Origin: a virus
Taxonomy: Duplodnaviria; Caudoviricetes
Direction: 5' to 3' (one strand)
IMG/VR virus record: IMGVR_UViG_3300037400_002919
Coordinates: 4,424 to 68,423 of that record
Length of the DNA stretch: 64,000 nucleotides
In this document: piece by piece, positions 34,259 to 64,000 of the stretch
How positions within the stretch are numbered: position 1 is the stretch's first letter
Layout: each line of letters begins with the position of its first letter
Notes under the pieces: generated by a model
Databases searched by the model: none
Seen by the model: only the letters and a program-made list of their open reading frames with translations
What the model was told of the DNA's origin: nothing
Made by a program: the position numbers and the translations under genes

Positions 34259-35470
34259 GTGTTTATTGGTTTACACAGGCATTCTCATTATAGCAAACGT
34301 GATGGTATCGCTAAAATCCCTGATATTATCAAGAGAGTCGATGAATTAGGTCAGTCAGCATGGGCTTTGACAGACCACGGAACGACTAGCGGACTGTTGG
34401 AAGCATATAAAGAAACCCAGAAATACAACAAGGCTCATGGGACTAACATAAAATTCATTTTCGGCTGTGAAGTTTACTGGATTCCTAATTATTGCATAAA
34501 AGACAGAAAGGCTTCTTGCCACTTGCTTCTTTTGGCAAAGAACGAGACAGGTTACAAAAATCTTTTAAAACTTGTTACAATCGGGTACGGAAACAAGGGA
34601 AAATCCCCTGATAATTATTTCTACACAATGAGACTGACAACGAAGGATATTCAGAAACATTCAGAGGGCATTATTGTTACTTCTGCTTGCATGGGTGGCA
34701 TCTTAAATCCAGTCGATTTTGATGGAAATTGGGATGATGAATTAGCCTTTGAAAGAGCGGAAAACTTCCAGAGTATTTTTGGAGATAACTTCTTTCTCGA
34801 AGTGCAGACAGGAACAAGTCCTGAACAGATTGAATACAATAAAAACATTGTGTTCATCGGGGAAAAACTAGGCATTCCAATTATCGTTACAGAGGATTCT
34901 CATTATGTCCATAAAGAAGATGCTGACGTTCATCGTAAGTGGCTTGGTCTTGATGATGATTCAGAGTATTACTCCACTGACGACTTTTATATTCACAGCG
35001 AAGAAGAAGTCCTTGAAAAGATTAAATATCTCAAAGATGCACAGAAATTTATTGACAATACAAAGATTATTGCTGATTCTTGCGATGTGGTTCATATTCA
35101 GTTCGGAGGAAAGAACTTCCCTGAACTAAAATTGGACGAGCCTGTCCTCGATAAAGTCTGTAAAATTGTATCAAAAGGCTGGAATAATAAAATCGTTGGT
35201 AAAGTCCCAGAAGAAAAATATCCCATATATAAAAAGCAGATTTCCCATGAGTTAGAAGTCTTGGCTAAATGCGATTACCTCACTTACTTTTTGATGAACG
35301 TAGACTTTTTGGAGTGGGCTAGAGAGAACGGTATACGAACAGGCATCGGCAGAGGTAGCGTAGGCGGTAGCCTGATTGCTTATCTCATGGATTTAACTAG
35401 AATAGACCCGATTAAGTACGGTCTGATTTTTGAAAGATTTGCTCACACGCAGAGAGTATCATTACCAGAT
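34259..35470 (+). CDS. dnaE: DNA polymerase III alpha subunit, exon 1 (PHP domain to active-site PD)
   Basis: LHRHSHYS.RDG, ALTDHGT, GCEVY, DSHY, GIGRGSVGGSL, LIFERF ... RVSLPD. Confidence 0.93.
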
Positions 35471-36303
35471 TAACAACATAGTCCGAGCGATATAGAAATA
35501 TACGACTCGTTTCCTGTGAACCACGATTACAAGTGGGTGTAGCTACATTGTAGCTGCTAACGGTAGAAGTTAAATAAGACTGGTGGTATGACAATTACCA
35601 TCTTTACCCAAAGGCGAATACGCTTCGTAAGAGAACCTACGGTCTTTCGCAAGATAGCAGGCAATACCGTGCTAAGACAATTTTATTACCTCCTAATGAG
35701 GGGGTGTTATTATTTACAAAAAAATCAAAGGATATGAAGATTACGGAGTTTCAAAAGATGGAAGAATATATTCTTTTAAATCAAACAAAGAACTTGCAAA
35801 ATCAACAACTACAAGAAGTCCTTATCTTCATGTCGATATTAGTGTAAATGGGGTTAGAAAACATTTACAAGTTCATAGGCTAGTTGCCATGACTTATATC
35901 CCTAATCCCAGAAATTTACCAGAGGTAGACCACATAGACAGAAATGTTTTAAACAATAATGTTTCTAATCTTCGGTGGGCGACTAGAAAAGATAATCTAC
36001 TAAATACAGAAATTAAATTTAGGCGAAATTTAAGGCGTTGCAAATTGTATCATAACAACCAATTTGTAAGAGAGTTTGATTGTGTTCATCAGGCGGCATT
36101 ATTCGCAAAAGAAAAATTCGGAGCTTCTCTAAGTTCTATGGAGAAATGGTATTCTAGTAGAGGTAGTAAAATTGTAAAGTGTAACGACTAACCCAGTGGT
36201 GGGTGTAGGGAGGATAATGTTACCTCTCGAAGTGCAGGATTCCTAAGTCAAAAGATATGGAAAAGAGATAGTCTAGTCCTTATGGAAACATAAGGTAGTA
36301 ACG
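35471..36303 (+). ncRNA. Group I intron in dnaE (833 nt)
   Basis: Exon ends in U and intron ends in G; P4 CGGTA 35561-65/TACCG 35665-69; P7 GACTA 36186-90/TAGTC 36269-73 inside AAGAGATAGTC; P9 CCTTATG-GAAA-CATAAGG 36278-95; splicing restores SLPD|VDTDV in frame. Confidence 0.9.
35712..36191 (+). CDS. Intron-encoded NUMOD4-HNH homing endonuclease
   Basis: Frame open from 35700: IKGYEDYGVSKDGRIYS ... VHRLVA ... VDHIDRN..NN.V.NLRW; no ATG/GTG/TTG before 35889, so a likely ATT start at 35709 or 35712. Confidence 0.85.
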   Translation: MYKKIKGYEDYGVSKDGRIYSFKSNKELAKSTTTRSPYLHVDISVNGVRKHLQVHRLVAMTYIPNPRNLPEVDHIDRNVLNNNVSNLRWATRKDNLLNTEIKFRRNLRRCKLYHNNQFVREFDCVHQAALFAKEKFGASLSSMEKWYSSRGSKIVKCND

Positions 36304-38628: not shown

Positions 38629-39132
38629 ATGTTATCTAAAGACAATCGCTGTCCCACATCTAAAGTGGCTAACACTCTGGAAGATTACCGCCTTAAACGC
38701 AACCTGAATAAAGCTCAGATGGCAAGGTTGCTTGGATGGACTGCTTCTGCTTACAGCAATCTTTTGAGAAGGAAAGACTCTAGCAGCGAGGTACAGGGAA
38801 ATACTATTGAGAAAATAGCGAAAGCCTTGGAAATCCCTGTGGAGAGCATACTAAACATGGAAACATTTAAAGAAAGACATGAGAGGATTTTAAGTACCCT
38901 TCCTGATTTTATTATCGAATGGCTAGGGACTGCAAACGGTAGAGCGGCAGTATTCCAGCTATACAAAGCTCATTATGAAGCCTTGCAAGAACATGAAAAA
39001 GAACTTATGCTTAACAAGTTGAGAATGAACCCTAACGAAGCTCCTGATGTATGGGAGAACTCTTATGCTGATACTAACCCAAAACTAGAGTACACCGTGG
39101 AAATACATTCTGCCCCCCCCCGTGGACATTGA
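38629..39132 (+). CDS. XRE-family HTH transcriptional repressor
   Basis: LEDYRLKRNLNKAQMARLLGWTASAYSNL ... TIEKIAKALEIPVESIL. Confidence 0.85.
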   Translation: MLSKDNRCPTSKVANTLEDYRLKRNLNKAQMARLLGWTASAYSNLLRRKDSSSEVQGNTIEKIAKALEIPVESILNMETFKERHERILSTLPDFIIEWLGTANGRAAVFQLYKAHYEALQEHEKELMLNKLRMNPNEAPDVWENSYADTNPKLEYTVEIHSAPPRGH

Positions 39133-39195: not shown

Positions 39196-39543
39196 TTACT
39201 GAATAGAAGGGATAATCGGTCTTTTCTTTTTTTCGGGAGAACTTTTTACGACAGGGGGAACAGATTCTTCTTTTCTCTCGATAGGGATGATAGCTGGCTT
39301 AGGAGCAACCTGTACAGGTGATTCTACATCCTCGAACAGCTCTGAAAACAGTTCCTTAGTCTTGTCAAAACCATTTTTGCTAAGGTACATAGAAGCCATT
39401 TCCAGCTTTTTTCTCTTTCCCTCTGGGATAGGGTCTATCATATCCTGCAATATGAGCATTCTAATATACGCTCCTGCGGTCGTCCCCTTAGACGAAATAT
39501 GCTCTTTCAAAACATCGTTGAGGGATATTGTCATAGTTCCCAT
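39196..39543 (-). CDS. parR: ParR-like ribbon-helix-helix adaptor
   Basis: Directly downstream of parM; SD AGGAGG supports ATG 39543; RHH-like N-terminus, unstructured C-terminal tail. Confidence 0.65.
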   Translation of the reverse strand: MGTMTISLNDVLKEHISSKGTTAGAYIRMLILQDMIDPIPEGKRKKLEMASMYLSKNGFDKTKELFSELFEDVESPVQVAPKPAIIPIERKEESVPPVVKSSPEKKKRPIIPSIQ

Positions 39544-39544
39544 A

Positions 39545-40456
39545 TTACTGTCCTCCTGCTTTAGCGTAGAAGCCACAGGCGTTGGCAAAAGCAAAGTTCT
39601 GATGTAACTCGACACAAGGAATAGACTGCTTTAAGTATTTTTCTACGTAAGCTGCACCGCCACCTACCAAGATGATACGGTCTAACTCGTTGTAATTCCA
39701 TGCTAATCTACGAAGTTCTGTCTCGATTTTCTCAGCAAATTCCTTGAAAAAAGGCTCTGCAATCTCGGCAATCTCAGGGCGTTTAGCAATCCTATCTGCC
39801 ACCTGATAGTCAGGGATTTCATAACCCAACTTTGTGTTTACTGCCTTGATAATATTCTGATAGACAAAGGAACATCCAAGGGTATCATAAGAGCGGCTAC
39901 GATTATCTACTTCGATGCCGTCAGAATACCACGCAACGTCAATAGTTTTCTGTCCAATATCAATAATACCGATAACGCTGCTCTCTACATCCTCGTACTC
40001 TGCTAACTCGTCAAATACTGCAATACCCTGCGGGAAAACAGAAACCTTTGAGATAACAACCTTACGAGGAATGCCGTTATAAACGAACTCATAAGTACCA
40101 GCGAAGCTCTCGAACTGAGAAGCCATATTCATATCTCCGATAGGGAGTCCCAAGGCAACTTCGGTAGTTACGTCTCCGCTTGCAATTCGAGAAATGGCAG
40201 TCAGTATGCAGAGCTTGTGACGAAGCATATCGTTCTTATCAAATGCTGATTCGCCCTCTTTGATAACGGCATACTTCCCCATGAAATATCTCTTACCGTC
40301 AATCTCGATATGGGAATAGTCTCCACGCTGATTCTCCTGATAAGGGGAGCTTGTTTCTAAATAAACAGAATGGAAGCCAGTGACAACAGCCTTGCCGTCT
40401 TTAACTCCTGCGTAAGCCTTTGTGATTCCGTAACCTACGTCAATTCCAATAATCAT
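39545..40456 (-). CDS. parM: ParM/StbA actin-like partition ATPase
   Basis: IGIDVGYGITK, GLPI, VFPQG, IIDIGQKTID, LVGGGA, ANACG actin-fold motifs. Confidence 0.9.
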   Translation of the reverse strand: MIIGIDVGYGITKAYAGVKDGKAVVTGFHSVYLETSSPYQENQRGDYSHIEIDGKRYFMGKYAVIKEGESAFDKNDMLRHKLCILTAISRIASGDVTTEVALGLPIGDMNMASQFESFAGTYEFVYNGIPRKVVISKVSVFPQGIAVFDELAEYEDVESSVIGIIDIGQKTIDVAWYSDGIEVDNRSRSYDTLGCSFVYQNIIKAVNTKLGYEIPDYQVADRIAKRPEIAEIAEPFFKEFAEKIETELRRLAWNYNELDRIILVGGGAAYVEKYLKQSIPCVELHQNFAFANACGFYAKAGGQ

Positions 40457-40470
40457 ACCTTTAATCTCCT

Positions 40471-40544
40471 TTAACTAATTATTAATTAATTAACACTTAA
40501 TCATTAACTAATCACATTATAACACATAATTAATCGTTTGTCAA
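40471..40544 (-). promoter_or_regulatory. parMR promoter with parC-like AT-rich repeats
   Basis: TTGACA (40544-39)-N17-TATAAT (40521-16) on the minus strand; repeated TTAA(C/T)TAAT units between promoter and SD. Confidence 0.7.
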
Positions 40545-40646
40545 GCAAAAAAGAAGGAGCTGTAAAAACAGCCCCAAATAGAAATAATAATTAGAAAAGG
40601 ATGATATTATATGTATCACTCAATTAAATAAGTGATAGGAAATCCA

Positions 40647-41717
40647 TTATAAGAAATCAAGTAAATCATGAAATTTACTTTGTCCAGCATAATCCTCTTG
40701 AATGGCTTTGACAAGTAATGCTGGTTTTATCTTGCCACGCTGACGGAGCATCTTTATGTTTCGGTTAACAATAGTTACTCCGTATTTTTTTACGAGATTG
40801 TCGCACATCGGCATATCGACACCGAGGGCGAATAAATCCCTTCCTGCGACAGTTTCCTCTGTATGGTCTAACATTGATGTGATGTTATGACTTTCGAGAT
40901 AAAACGCCACCCGCCTATTTTTCTGAATTTCCTCACTCTTTTGGTGGACAATTTTCCTGTCGTTTTCTCTCCATACGCTCTCAGGGACTTTAGCAACGAA
41001 CTCAGCCCCTACGACACGCCTACCAGACTTTTCGTAGTTTACAGAGATGATTTCAAAGCCTGTTTCGTCCTTATGGGAGTTAATATCCTCGACCGCTTTT
41101 TCGAGGACATATTTTTTTAAATCTGTCCACCGATTGTACTCTGGCGCACCGAGAAATTCTCCAATTACAGACTTGTCTATATATCTCTTGACAAGCCCTG
41201 TTTTCGTCAACTTTCCATCTTTTCCAATCTGAGGGAAAAGGCAGATAGTCTCGATAAGGTTTCTGGCATACTCACTGTTCATTTTGAGCAGCAAGTCTTG
41301 CGGGATTCTCGTGTAAGCCTTGTCGTCTAAAACTAGGAGGTATGGAATGAGAAACGGATTTAATTGTATGACAAAACCTTTTTCGTTTTTTGTATAGTGA
41401 GACAGCCAGTTATAATAGCTTTTCCCTTCTGGAGTAATTAACTGTGCTTGGGTTTTCATCAGTCTTTTTAACTGTTCTTCTGCCCTGTCCATCCAGACCC
41501 AAATCTGGGAGGGAGGAATTTTAAGTTTATCCATGACTTCCTCCTTTGTTATCTCGATTCGTCCAAATTCAGAGTCATAGTTCTTGCTGCCTTTGAGTTT
41601 CGGGTTTAGTTTGTCAAGCACTAAGTAATAAATGCTCGAAGAATGGATGCCCTCAAAATCCCTTCTGCTTTTCAATTCTTGCAGTAAAGCGTTGGCTTGG
41701 TATATCATTCCATTCAC
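40647..41717 (-). CDS. rep: Plasmid replication initiator, Rep_3 (RepB-like) family
   Basis: QANALL, YYLVL.KL, FVIQLNPFLIPYL..L...YT, SEYA..L, DLKK.VL..AV.DIN, EKSGRRVVG; GTG 41717 has SD AGGAGG (track start 41738). Confidence 0.88.
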   Translation of the reverse strand: MNGMIYQANALLQELKSRRDFEGIHSSSIYYLVLDKLNPKLKGSKNYDSEFGRIEITKEEVMDKLKIPPSQIWVWMDRAEEQLKRLMKTQAQLITPEGKSYYNWLSHYTKNEKGFVIQLNPFLIPYLLVLDDKAYTRIPQDLLLKMNSEYARNLIETICLFPQIGKDGKLTKTGLVKRYIDKSVIGEFLGAPEYNRWTDLKKYVLEKAVEDINSHKDETGFEIISVNYEKSGRRVVGAEFVAKVPESVWRENDRKIVHQKSEEIQKNRRVAFYLESHNITSMLDHTEETVAGRDLFALGVDMPMCDNLVKKYGVTIVNRNIKMLRQRGKIKPALLVKAIQEDYAGQSKFHDLLDFL

Positions 41718-41745
41718 TTTTACCAACCTCCTTTTCAATGTCTAT

Positions 41746-41774
41746 ATTCTACATTCATTTTTTACAAATGTCAA
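41746..41774 (-). promoter_or_regulatory. rep promoter
   Basis: TTGACA-N17-TAGAAT on the minus strand. Confidence 0.7.
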
Positions 41775-41816
41775 CACTTTTTGTTAATTATATATAAATT
41801 TTTTCTTATTTTCCCA

Positions 41817-42108
41817 CAACAATTGCTCCACATATCACAACATTTGCTCCACATATTAATGATTTTTTACACTTATTTTTCACAAATGTAAGTGAATTTT
41901 ATTCACACCTGTGGATATATATGTGGATATTTATCTGTGGATAACTATGTTGATAACTAGCTAAAACCTGTGGATAAATACTGATAATGATAATCACGCT
42001 CACAACATTTCCTCCACATATTAACAACATTTCCTCCACATATCGGGGGTATTAGTCAAAAGGTCAACAACATTTCCTCCACATATTTGCAACAATTGCT
42101 CCACATAT
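41817..42108. repeat. Plasmid origin: six 19-bp iterons plus DnaA boxes
   Basis: CAACA(A/T)TT(G/C)CTCCACATAT at 41817, 41838, 42003, 42025, 42068, 42090 (pairs 21-22 bp apart); TGTGGATAA at 41936 and 41969; TGTGGATAT at 41910 and 41922; TTATTCACA at 41899; AT-rich flank. Confidence 0.9.
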
Positions 42109-45609: not shown

Positions 45610-45660
45610 TAACATAATAATCATTAATTAATTAATGATTAGTTAATAGCTAATTAAGAG

Positions 45661-55271: not shown

Positions 55272-55628
55272 TTATAAATCTTTCGGAAACAATTTCTGCA
55301 TCTCTAAACATTGATACACCCAACCTCGGATAACATCACTTTGAGTATACCCAAACCTAGAACAGAGATTTTTAAAAACCTCACGCACCTCAACAGGAAT
55401 ACAAATAGTGAGCTTGTTTACGTTTTTCCCTATATATGTATGTTCTGTTTTGTATAAATTAACATAGTCATAAGTAAGACTAGAAAAAATTCTTAATCTC
55501 ATATAATCGCCAATAGACGTTCCATGTTTTTGAACCATGTCAAGAAAATTCTCGTAGGCATCTTCTTCAATGTAAATTCTTATCCGAATATTGGACGATA
55601 ATTCTGCTGCATTTTCTGTTTTTCTCAT
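55272..55628 (-). CDS. Tandem ribbon-helix-helix DNA-binding protein
   Basis: Two strand-helix-helix repeats (IRIRIYIE...SIGDYMR; KLTICIP...TQSDVIR). Confidence 0.55.
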   Translation of the reverse strand: MRKTENAAELSSNIRIRIYIEEDAYENFLDMVQKHGTSIGDYMRLRIFSSLTYDYVNLYKTEHTYIGKNVNKLTICIPVEVREVFKNLCSRFGYTQSDVIRGWVYQCLEMQKLFPKDL

Positions 55629-56486
55629 TTATTTTCTCCTGTCAATCTTATTAACTGCTTCTTCTAAATCGTCCATGCTGACACCGATATACCTCTGGGT
55701 AATATTAATATCAGAATGTCCTAACTGCTCCTGAATAATTCTAAGCGGAACTCCATTCCTGCTCATTTCGGTAGCACAGGCATGACGGAAACTATGGCAA
55801 GTTAGCTTAGTGAAACCAGCACTATCACAGGCTTCACGGATAAGTCTACTAATAGAGCGGTCAGTCATTCTTCCGAATCGTCCCACTACTAAAGCTCTTT
55901 TGTCAATCTCTAAGGCTTCTGCTTCGATAGACGGCTTGTCTTTTAAGTATTTGTCTATTATCTCTGACAAGAAGCTAGGAATAACCAGCCTCCTATCCTT
56001 TTTGTTTTTAGGGTCACGGACAATCATATATACCCTGTCGCCTTTTCTCTCGAAGTCCTCTAAGTTCAGAGCCGCTACTTCTCCCACTCTAAGCCCTGTA
56101 TAATACATAAGACCTATGCATATGGCGGTTCGAGAATCAGCCCTATCCATTAGGTATTCCACTTCTTTTACCTCGGCAACAGGAGCAACCCTGCTGTCCA
56201 TCTTTGTTTCCTTCATATACCGAAGCATCTTTTTTGCTTCCTTGCTATCAAATTCGTCCTCAAAGTTAGTCAAGACAAATCTAAGAGCGGAGAACTTCAA
56301 AAGAATACTCTTGTTAGTCATTCCATCTTCATGGAATCGGGTCGTAGCCTTTACCAGAGAATCCAAACTAGGCTTTTCAGTAAACCCGAAAGACCTAAAA
56401 GCACTTTCGTAGCTAGAAACTGTATTCTTTGAGCGGTTGCTTTTTAAATACTCCATTGTTTTTGCATATATTTCTTCCCATGTCAT
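55629..56486 (-). CDS. Tyrosine recombinase (Xer/Cre-like, probable dimer resolvase)
   Basis: TGLRVGE, K..K.R, HSFRH, LGHSD, TQRY catalytic set; SD supports ATG 56486; own promoter TTGACG-N18-TATAAT at 56537-56508. Confidence 0.92.
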   Translation of the reverse strand: MTWEEIYAKTMEYLKSNRSKNTVSSYESAFRSFGFTEKPSLDSLVKATTRFHEDGMTNKSILLKFSALRFVLTNFEDEFDSKEAKKMLRYMKETKMDSRVAPVAEVKEVEYLMDRADSRTAICIGLMYYTGLRVGEVAALNLEDFERKGDRVYMIVRDPKNKKDRRLVIPSFLSEIIDKYLKDKPSIEAEALEIDKRALVVGRFGRMTDRSISRLIREACDSAGFTKLTCHSFRHACATEMSRNGVPLRIIQEQLGHSDINITQRYIGVSMDDLEEAVNKIDRRK

Positions 56487-56576
56487 AACAAATATCCTCC
56501 TTTTCAAATTATACTACAAGACAATATCAATCGTCAAGTAACCAAAACAGAAAACCCCAGAACAATGCTCCTAAAA

Positions 56577-56920: not shown

Positions 56921-57304
56921 TTAATAAATCGTCTTACAAATCTCGGCTGCTAAGTTCGCTCCTGCTCTCCTGTCAGAACCAGTCTTACTAACGGTGAATT
57001 GGTATCGGGTGTCACCATGATAACGAATTTTATAATGCTTACGTCCCTCAATAATTTCAAAACCTAAGTCTTTTAAAACCTTTTTAAGACTTGCATTCAT
57101 TTCGCTATATCCTTTAAGCAAATCCTTAATTCGCTTCTTCTTTTGGTCTATACTATTGGTCTTGTTTACCTCTAGGAAAGCGTTTAGAAGGTCTACTCTA
57201 CGCTTCTCCTGCGGATGGTCGGTAACATATTTAGATAGTATATCCAGAATAATATTTCTTGTTTCGTCATGCTCATACTCTAACTCATTTGACTTCTTAA
57301 ACAT
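56921..57304 (-). CDS. Protein with a HicA-like C-terminal domain
   Basis: LKDLGFEIIEGRKHYKIRY...FTVSKTGSD.RAG.N pattern. Confidence 0.45.
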   Translation of the reverse strand: MFKKSNELEYEHDETRNIILDILSKYVTDHPQEKRRVDLLNAFLEVNKTNSIDQKKKRIKDLLKGYSEMNASLKKVLKDLGFEIIEGRKHYKIRYHGDTRYQFTVSKTGSDRRAGANLAAEICKTIY

Positions 57305-57354
57305 TATTTCACTCCTAACTAATTATTAATTAACTATTATTTATTTACTAACTA

Positions 57355-57384
57355 ATTATAGCACATTACACGCTATTTTGTCAA
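57355..57384 (-). promoter_or_regulatory. Early promoter with ATAGC-N9-GCTAT palindrome
   Basis: TTGACA-N18-TATAAT plus TG on the minus strand. Confidence 0.75.
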
Positions 57385-63256: not shown

Positions 63257-63878
63257 CGCCCTTTTTATTTGACAACCTCACACTAGCTTGATTTTCCCTT
63301 TTCCTGTTGTCTTGTAACTGTTAGATGTTTACATCTAGTTGACACTAACCAGCACATAGTCAGACGGCTACCCTACATCTAAAAACGTTACCATTCAAGG
63401 AAGCTGGATTCATGTATCATTTTTGTTACCTGTATGACAAACAGGGCTTTTCGCCAGATTGGAAAAACTAACTAATGTGAAGTTGTCAAAGGGCGGAGAT
63501 TAATTGTATTATATTAAACTCCATTTCGCTTCTATTTTCTCATTCCATATCTTTAGACCAGAACCAGACAAACCTCTATTTTTTAGCGTGTCTATGGTTG
63601 GGTAGCCAGAGCCATAGCCGTTTTAAAAAACTTTGAAAAAGTCTTTTATCTAGCCGCCAGATACTTCCTAAGAAATATCCACGAAACTTTATTTAATTTT
63701 TCGGGTTTAATCACTCACCCGACCGATTGCGTATCGGTAGACGACCTCTATTACAGGAGAAACCTTCCTTTTACCGTTTTAAAAAGTTACGGCAAACTTT
63801 TGGTACTTTTTTTATCTTGTTCGGTTAGGGTGTACATCCCTACGTCATTTCTTATTAGGTCGCCCGATTGACGACCAT
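63257..63878 (-). ncRNA. Candidate large structured RNA / leader
   Basis: No ORF of 60 aa or more; begins at a consensus promoter; several hairpins and a ~35-bp long-range stem whose mismatches are G.U only on the minus strand. Confidence 0.5.
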
Positions 63879-63884
63879 GCTTTT

Positions 63885-63913
63885 ATTATAGCACGCAACG
63901 TGCTATATGTCAA
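63885..63913 (-). promoter_or_regulatory. Consensus promoter containing a perfect 9-bp inverted repeat
   Basis: TTGACA-N17-TATAAT; TATAGCACG-caa-CGTGCTATA at 63887-63907. Confidence 0.85.
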
Positions 63914-64000
63914 GCACTTTTTAACTTGTGACTCTAGTTAAGAGGTATAGCTTTTTTTACAACGTCTATACACGTTGATGTTGGTGATAACACTTCACGG

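Follow-up and report, generated by a model that had tools for sequence, protein, structure and literature searches.

Layout of the maintenance module

The window analysed here is a stretch of 64,000 nt from a 68,423-bp IMG/VR record, and a maintenance module lies at 39196-42108 within it. An earlier note had claimed a contiguous ParR-ParM-Rep_3-iteron-DnaA-box module at this place, and profile and motif searches recovered it, with ParR as a candidate. All parts of the module are present, far above chance expectation. The rep and parMR transcription units are parted by an intrinsic-terminator-like hairpin at 40556-40575 (minus strand), 3′ of rep.

The Rep_3 replicon and its origin

The Rep_3 initiator, with WH1 and WH2, is encoded at 40647-41738 on the minus strand and was recognized by both Rep3_N (E = 6.5e-11; 43.2 bits, cut-off 22.4) and Rep3_C (E = 1.1e-9; 38.8 bits, cut-off 21.1). 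Its likely start at 41708 or 41717 gives a protein of 353-356 aa, the length at which metagenomic Rep_3 homologues are called. The rep promoter (41746-41774, minus strand; TTGACA-17-TAGAAT) adjoins the proximal iteron pair, and a stretch of about 85% A+T at 41775-41815 (80-85% stretches) is a candidate DNA-unwinding element.

Six 20-mer iterons form three pairs, at 41816-41856 (copies at 41816 and 41837), 42002-42043 (42002 and 42024) and 42067-42108 (42067 and 42089). All six matches to the 20-mer fall within 41816-42108 and none elsewhere in the window, with 0.01 expected. The number and pairing are as the earlier note described them, but the spacing of 21, 22 and 22 bp corresponds to two helical turns and not to one. 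The predicted DnaA-box cluster was also found: among the iteron pairs, at 41899-41977, there are five co-oriented boxes (41910, 41922, 41936, 41948 and 41969) and, on the other strand, an 8/9 match at 41899. The whole 64 kb contains only 25 sites of the DnaA-box type. From these sites we infer binding and copy control. Rep_3 would bind the six iterons and host DnaA the five boxes between them, upon which the adjacent AT-rich DNA would open and the host replisome would run theta replication. By occupying the iteron pair nearest to its own promoter, Rep probably represses that promoter.

Rep homologues of 87-99% identity occur in nine metagenome protein clusters, one of which, viewed in full, has an identical context. 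A more distant homologue (72% identical) adjoins ParA/ParB, with iteron pairs, DnaA boxes, an iteron and rep following one another as they do here. Its iterons have diverged but the layout of the origin has been retained, a sign of purifying selection on function. It is surrounded by the backbone of another temperate phage, which encodes an HTH_36/Phg_2220_C initiator of its own. Since the same cassette sits in a different backbone that has its own initiator, we interpret the Rep_3 cassette as a portable maintenance replicon.

ParM, a candidate ParR and the partition locus

ParM, an actin-like partition ATPase of 303 aa, is encoded at 39545-40456 on the minus strand. It matched the Pfam families ALP_N (1.2e-17), MreB-like_C (2.4e-11) and ParM_N (4.5e-8), each over its cut-off, as well as PHROG 691 ‘partition protein’ (1.4e-51). 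A profile of the group's ParM proteins matched solved ParMs, namely pCBH ParM (2e-16), Cbc-ParM and Alp12, and the actin phosphate and adenosine motifs do not vary across 7 relatives.

The next ORF (39196-39543, minus strand) encodes the ParR candidate of 115 aa, with an RHH-like N-terminus, a disordered tail and a basic C-terminal motif, KKKRPIIPSIQ; the relatives also have a basic motif at this end. It starts at the ATG at 39543, 1 nt past the parM stop and behind GGAGGA, and is translationally coupled; the gene caller also gives a 115-aa ParR in the 97%-identical relative L046. The protein had no family match. Residues 1-34 of the group profile gave weak matches to the RHH proteins CopG (E = 0.024), AvtR and NikA (E = 0.024-0.5 across the matches). 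An AF2 model of the monomer, built on a 6-row alignment, places helices at residues 8-19 and 23-36 and leaves the tail disordered; its pLDDT of 55 is too low for a fold search. Gene position and the weak RHH signal thus make this protein a candidate ParR.

The parMR promoter at 40516-40544 (minus strand; TTGACA-17-TATAAT with extended TG) matches at 12/12 positions. Between it and the parM start, a motif cluster of four tandem 11-bp units, TTAAnTAATnA, forms the parC candidate (40471-40514). Similar arrays lie at 45621-45646 and 57315-57358 before two unrelated operons, and the array at 40471-40514 may equally be a general or shared operator. If it is parC, the ParR candidate would bind it as an RHH dimer downstream of the parMR promoter, and the resulting complex would cap ParM filaments that push sister copies apart.

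Convergent with parR, an HTH_3 (Cro/CI-type) regulator is encoded at 38629-39132 on the plus strand. It matched Pfam HTH_3 (9e-7) and PHROG transcriptional repressor families, and its position is kept, with homologues of 25-28% identity at the same place in 5 relatives. It is the likely prophage repressor, and we infer that the prophage would be inducible.

The phage genome

The record holds the whole phage genome: its two 38-bp ends are identical, and host DNA does not flank it. CheckV estimated its completeness at 100%, and a Logan assembly made independently from the probable source run yielded a single contig of 68,229 bp. Virion DNA or replicating phage DNA would be just as likely as an episome to give a circular assembly. 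The DnaE, primase-helicase and ribonucleotide reductase (RNR) genes of the earlier note were confirmed, the last as NrdD/NrdG, together with terminase, portal, adaptor and virion structural protein genes, a 2784-aa tape measure and GH25 and amidase lysins. Every ORF examined for structure, packaging, lysis or replication has its full length and is conserved across relatives. Lytic growth would use the phage's own DnaE, primase-helicase, Rad52/exonuclease and NrdDG. An Rfam search at gathering thresholds, covering the whole window and the corresponding slots of two relatives, returned no match and so lent no support to a group I intron in dnaE or to an RNA in slots that lack ORFs.

We searched Logan contigs, some of them fragmentary and from community-like data, with a 4.8-kb stretch. 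Runs belonging to 11 studies, on gut samples from cattle, pigs and other sources, contain at least part of this stretch, mostly with half or more of its sampled words present. This occurrence fits horizontal spread.

A single Xer-like recombinase

The recombinase claimed at 55.6 kb is a tyrosine recombinase of 292 aa at 55629-56507 on the minus strand (PF00589, 8e-31). Its matches are Xer-like from end to end, beneath the NCBIfam cut-offs. It is the sole recombinase of the genome; there is no serine recombinase, in keeping with the earlier view that an integration module is missing. As a candidate multimer resolvase, it would resolve multimers of the element. Close to the genome ends there are copies of ATAGC-N9-GCTAT, which we do not regard as att-like sites because they match an operator repeat at early promoters.

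Relatives as plasmids and as a prophage

The backbone and gene order are shared with pSRC4 (NC_017069.1), a 72,893-bp circular plasmid of the fully sequenced isolate Selenomonas ruminantium subsp. lactilytica TAM6421. Identity reaches 72% for TerL and the exonuclease, 66% for capsid, 60-64% for DnaE, 57% for portal, 54% for primase-helicase and 44% for Rad52. In the same slot pSRC4 likewise encodes ParM (38%), followed downstream by an RHH-like adaptor; it also has an Xer-like recombinase (28%). It differs in having neither Rep_3 nor iterons, its slot holding a 268-aa ORF of unannotated function instead, in its longer ParR (193-197 aa) and in its uninterrupted DnaE. Both pSRC4 and pSRC3, the second circular plasmid of TAM6421, are RefSeq records annotated only as plasmids; pSRC4 is also in IMG/VR.

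Further IMG/VR relatives were reached via TerL, and ParM lies in the same slot in all five complete ones tested. Among 262 Selenomonadaceae species genomes this ParM type was found only on pSRC4. Pattern-based IMG/VR searches with Rep or ParM alone found nothing, and the module had no blastn match among 50,697 phage records. For TerL, a first scan of the genome collection returned nothing and an alignment-based scan one MAG fragment. The genome-collection scans revealed no close relative in a chromosome.

The slot lies between dnaE and the recombination and replication genes (Rad52/SSB, primase-helicase), and its contents differ in distant relatives. In pSRC3 it holds ParA with ImmA and HTH genes. 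In an integrated relative, a prophage flanked by trp genes in a 2.49-Mb chromosome, ParM is absent and the slot is occupied by a 367-aa integrase together with ImmA and HTH genes. This integrase is end-located and is 24% identical to the internal recombinase over the catalytic part. Orthologues of the internal recombinase are kept in pSRC4, pSRC3 and the integrated relative. Since the integrated relative keeps its internal Xer-like recombinase in addition to a separate integrase, the former is not that relative's integrase, and the internal recombinase of our element is probably not the integrase either.

Across relatives the slot thus carries ParMR with the Rep_3 origin, ParMR with another or no recognisable initiator, ParA, or an integrase-ImmA-repressor set. 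We consider it possible, at slightly less than even weight, that in a single lineage of Selenomonadaceae siphophages this slot, with dnaE on one side and the Rad52/SSB and primase-helicase genes on the other, serves as a hot spot for lifestyle switching.

A phage probably kept as a plasmid

The reading that we favour, and consider likely, is that the element is a temperate siphovirus-type phage that infects Selenomonadaceae of the rumen and gut and persists as prophage in the form of a low-copy circular plasmid. It is based on collinearity with pSRC4, on ParM in all complete relatives tested and on the integrase that replaces the module in the integrated relative. For the relatives pSRC4 and pSRC3, both circular plasmids of a complete genome, the record type shows an extrachromosomal state, which by analogy is probable for the element. 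This supports the earlier interpretation, in which a phage-plasmid combines type II partition and an iteron replicon.

We weighed this against an element that integrates through its tyrosine recombinase or is effectively lytic, with the Rep_3-iteron region as an early theta origin like lambda O/ori and ParM/ParR positioning DNA or serving another role in infection. PHROGs does label the recombinase ‘integrase’ (4e-42), and relatives keep ParM without Rep_3. ParMR also occurs in phages that are not known as plasmids, such as the SPO1-like Bacillus phages, and ParM genes in large Bacillus phages that are regarded as virulent; Pfeifer 2021 doubts that SPO1-like Bacillus phages are phage-plasmids (PMC7969092). 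However, pSRC4 carries the same recombinase and ParM but exists as a circular plasmid within a complete genome, and the integrated relative uses a different integrase while it keeps the internal recombinase and lacks ParM. With no close relative found in a chromosome, and with Rep_3 cassettes accompanying partition genes in two different backbones, of which one possesses a phage initiator besides, we regard integration or a lytic lifestyle as unlikely.

The Rep_3-iteron cassette could also have been inserted recently from a small plasmid, or be what is left of a cointegrate, and contribute little, with upkeep through the origin of the Rep-less relatives (a perfect DnaA-box pair and some further factor). 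The cassette was found only in this sublineage and is missing from all five complete relatives and from pSRC4. Slots of Rep-less relatives hold an HTH_36 ORF, the 268-aa ORF or no ORF above 91 aa, and in two that were scanned two perfect DnaA boxes lie near parM. Since close relatives do without it, the group's lifestyle does not depend on Rep_3, and on the sequences compared the Rep_3 origin is a cassette of one sublineage and no group trait. This reading is nevertheless rather improbable, given an intact cassette with its own promoter and terminator, the 87-99% identical homologues (one in identical context) and an origin architecture kept in the 72% homologue despite diverged iterons. A defective, domesticated phage-derived plasmid that makes no virions, as the plasmid-only annotation of pSRC4 and pSRC3 might suggest, is very improbable in view of the full-length, conserved phage ORFs, the CheckV completeness and the partial or better presence in runs of 11 gut studies.

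Comparison with known systems

The partition locus resembles R1 ParMRC in the order of promoter with repeat array, parM and the parR candidate, in its actin-like ATPase and in its 11-bp promoter units. It differs from R1 in that the similarity of ParM is distant (NCBIfam ParM 1e-12, far beneath cut-off), ParR has no sequence match, the array has four units compared with ten in R1, and like arrays occur at two other loci of the element.

Phage P1, a myovirus of enterobacteria, has an iteron-binding RepA, DnaA boxes in oriR, an adjoining partition operon, the dimer-resolving tyrosine recombinase Cre and a separate lytic replicon. The element follows the same logic, with a similar Rep, iteron and DnaA-box layout, and is not known to share sequence with P1. 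The partition system of P1 is of type Ia, ParAB-parS. On the grounds that P1 and N15 use ParAB, the earlier note had proposed that ParMR may define an undescribed phage-plasmid group, and this part of its interpretation does not stand.

PMC11526630 already describes the temperate Bacillus siphoviruses vB_BceS-IEBH, Bp8p-C and vB_BtS_B83 as experimentally confirmed plasmid prophages that are kept through a protein resembling ParM together with an RHH/HTH adaptor; B83 also encodes Xer recombinases. Their backbones and hosts are unrelated to ours and ParM identity is below 30%; they are not known to have a DnaE replisome or Rep_3. The closest ParM homologues in isolated phages (28%) are those of the Clostridium perfringens phages vB_CpeS-1181, phiCp-D and LPCPA58, which differ in backbone and host and have no Rep_3 match. 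ParM is also carried by 37-57 kb plasmids of C. perfringens, for which there are reports of phage-plasmids (PMC10210947). The lifestyle and its modules are thus known from other phages, and the element is a new example and not a new kind.

Novelty and implications

Our literature search found no paper that describes the Negativicutes lineage or pSRC4 as a phage-plasmid. Neither pSRC4 nor NC_017069 had a text match, TAM6421 was mentioned only in passing, never in a title or abstract, and a search directed at the rumen gave no title or abstract on Selenomonas phage-plasmids. The supplements of Pfeifer and Rocha 2024 gave no match. We regard as modestly new the Negativicutes lineage, a Rep_3 origin cassette that is portable between unrelated phage backbones and one slot with exchangeable lifestyle modules.

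Our knowledge of how such elements work is unchanged by this one. Recognition of phage-plasmids as vehicles of gene flow is growing, and those studied come mostly from enterobacteria, Bacillus, Clostridium and mycobacteria. The element documents a rumen and gut Negativicutes lineage with a culturable model host, TAM6421, which carries both pSRC4 and pSRC3. Partition and integration modules swap at one locus, which makes the transition from an integrated to a plasmid state testable in this group. If the slot is indeed a hot spot, its relatives would form a natural series that includes two co-resident phage-plasmids in one culturable strain, and both the interconversion of integrative prophage and phage-plasmid and the compatibility of related plasmids could be tested directly.

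The module and its phage genome

The window covers positions 4424-68423 of a single virus record of 68,423 bp, whose first 38 bases are the same as its last 38. IMG/VR classes the record under direct terminal repeats, and CheckV gives its completeness as 100%. Its virion, packaging and lysis genes include terminase, portal, head-tail adaptor, a virion structural protein, a 2784-aa tape measure and two lysins. The replication genes encode DnaE, a primase-helicase fusion, a Rad52-family annealing protein (Erf-like in PHROGs), an exonuclease, a dUTPase, and the anaerobic reductase NrdD with its activase. As no sheath gene was seen among ten head and tail genes scanned, it is reasonable to call the element a siphophage.

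An earlier note had placed a plasmid-maintenance module at 39196-42108. Profile matches and motif counts confirmed its ParM, Rep_3 initiator, iterons and DnaA boxes, and its ParR is likely; all three genes lie on the minus strand. ParM (39545-40456) scores over the cut-offs for ALP_N, ParM_N and MreB-like_C and matches PHROG 691 at 1e-51. Its family profile matches the solved structures of pCBH ParM (2e-16), Cbc-ParM and Alp12, and the nucleotide-binding motifs are unchanged across seven relatives. The downstream gene starts at an ATG at 39543, one base beyond the parM stop, with GGAGGA ahead of it. It encodes 115 aa, which is also the gene caller's length in a 97%-identical relative. The protein itself has no family match. 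The profile of its group has weak matches to CopG, AvtR and NikA, all RHH proteins, over residues 1-34; a low-confidence AlphaFold model has the two expected helices and a disordered tail, and a basic motif at the end of the tail is common to several relatives. On the basis of its coupling to parM, the weak RHH match, the model and the tail motif, this gene is likely parR.

A perfect promoter precedes parM, and four tandem 11-bp units lie between the two. Similar AT-rich 11-bp arrays occur at 45621-45646, with a promoter on one side and the beginning of the exonuclease operon on the other, and at 57315-57358, ahead of the gene at 56921-57304. Judged by sequence, they could represent a shared operator or additional ParR sites.

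A portable Rep_3 origin

Rep (40647-41738, minus strand) contains both Rep_3 winged-helix domains over their cut-offs. Upstream of rep, at 41816-42108, a 20-mer iteron occurs six times and is absent from the rest of the 64 kb (0.01 expected). The copies form three pairs with a spacing of 21-22 bp. Five co-oriented DnaA boxes (41910-41977) are sited between pair 1 and pairs 2-3, and stretches of 80-85% A+T flank pair 1 on either side. The promoter of rep is near-consensus and directly adjoins pair 1, and a terminator follows rep.

Metagenomic Rep homologues share 68-99% identity, one of them within a near-identical phage. The 72% homologue, on gut metagenome contig L044 (9690-13702), adjoins ParA/ParB in a different, unrelated temperate-phage backbone, itself a further candidate phage-plasmid. 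Its cassette holds five iterons and 3-4 DnaA boxes; the iteron sequences have diverged, and the order (iteron pairs, DnaA boxes, iteron, rep) is that of the element. The Rep_3 cassette thus serves as a maintenance replicon that is portable between backbones and combines with either kind of partition system.

Relatives and the exchangeable slot

Of 72,556 plasmid records, pSRC4 gave the best ParM match. This plasmid belongs to the complete genome of Selenomonas ruminantium TAM6421, was deposited as circular with a length of 72.9 kb, and is collinear with the element from terminase through recombinase. Across 262 Selenomonadaceae species genomes, pSRC4 is the sole carrier of this ParM. IMG/VR holds 17 TerL relatives, and all five complete ones searched have ParM at the corresponding position, together with one tyrosine recombinase. 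No Rep_3 was found in these five or in pSRC4; their slots between dnaE and the Rad52/replication genes contain an HTH_36 protein, a 268-aa ORF or no long ORF. Two perfect DnaA boxes lie near parM in each of the two Rep_3-less relatives scanned, L031 included. The parM-Rad52 interval of four complete relatives (L031:6025-7606; L030, L033 and L034) spans ~1.3-1.6 kb without a long ORF, the longest seen being 91 aa in L031 and 98 aa in L030, and these ORF-poor intervals had no Rfam match.

More distant members of the same backbone have 36-40% TerL identity. In pSRC3, a second circular plasmid of TAM6421 (NC_017073.1, 73.4 kb), ParA and ImmA/HTH occupy the slot beside DnaE. This strain carries two circular ~73-kb plasmids of one broad phage lineage, with ParM on one and ParA on the other, which suggests that they are compatible through their differing partition systems. 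The same backbone also occurs as an integrated prophage of roughly 78 kb in a 2.49-Mb chromosome contig (G087:C1, about 1,741,900-1,820,000), with trp genes on both sides. Its slot has no ParM; a 367-aa integrase, ImmA and a repressor stand where the element has parMR and rep.

This prophage also retains the internal Xer-like recombinase, which is just 24% identical to its end-located integrase over the catalytic part. The conserved recombinase is therefore probably not the integrase, and its likeliest role would be multimer resolution. No second recombinase was found in the element's genome.

Plasmid lifestyle and novelty

The element is probably a phage-plasmid, as the earlier note had proposed, and its relatives are the strongest evidence for a plasmid prophage. 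An independent assembly of the probable source run gave a single 68,229-bp contig without host flanks, which agrees with an episome but falls short of proof. ParMR by itself is insufficient proof of a plasmid lifestyle, because SPO1-like Bacillus phages, doubted as phage-plasmids (Pfeifer 2021, PMC7969092), also have it.

The proposal did not hold in treating type II partition as new for a phage-plasmid. The element follows the plan of P1, which joins an iteron initiator with DnaA boxes and an adjoining partition operon, has a resolving recombinase and keeps its lytic replisome separate. ParM-type partition is already established in the plasmid prophages of Bacillus phages IEBH, Bp8p-C and B83 (PMC11526630). 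The element therefore belongs to an already-known kind of phage-plasmid. ParM is also present in Clostridium perfringens phages and plasmids. Our search, whose scope did not extend to published phage-plasmid catalogues, found no literature on pSRC4 or Selenomonas phage-plasmids. What is new is modest: this lineage, its portable origin cassette and a slot with exchangeable modules.

Other features of the genome

Across the circular junction, 167 bp separate two identical 49-bp direct repeats, one at 63874-63922 of the window and the other beyond it, at genome positions 79-127. Both include the palindrome ATAGC-N9-GCTAT, noted earlier at early promoters. Beside the recombinase gene, 55355-55626 is a variable cargo spot, where 270 bp are swapped for 675 other letters in contigs from other samples. 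The dnaE gene is interrupted at 35458-36303 by an insertion of ~833 bp that carries a 100-aa ORF (35889-36191) and matched no Rfam intron family at gathering score. In the metagenomic relative L046 (96-98% identical), dnaE is free of the insertion and encodes an intact DnaE of 1018 aa. The dnaE of the integrated relative is likewise interrupted and bears an HNH/NUMOD4 ORF.
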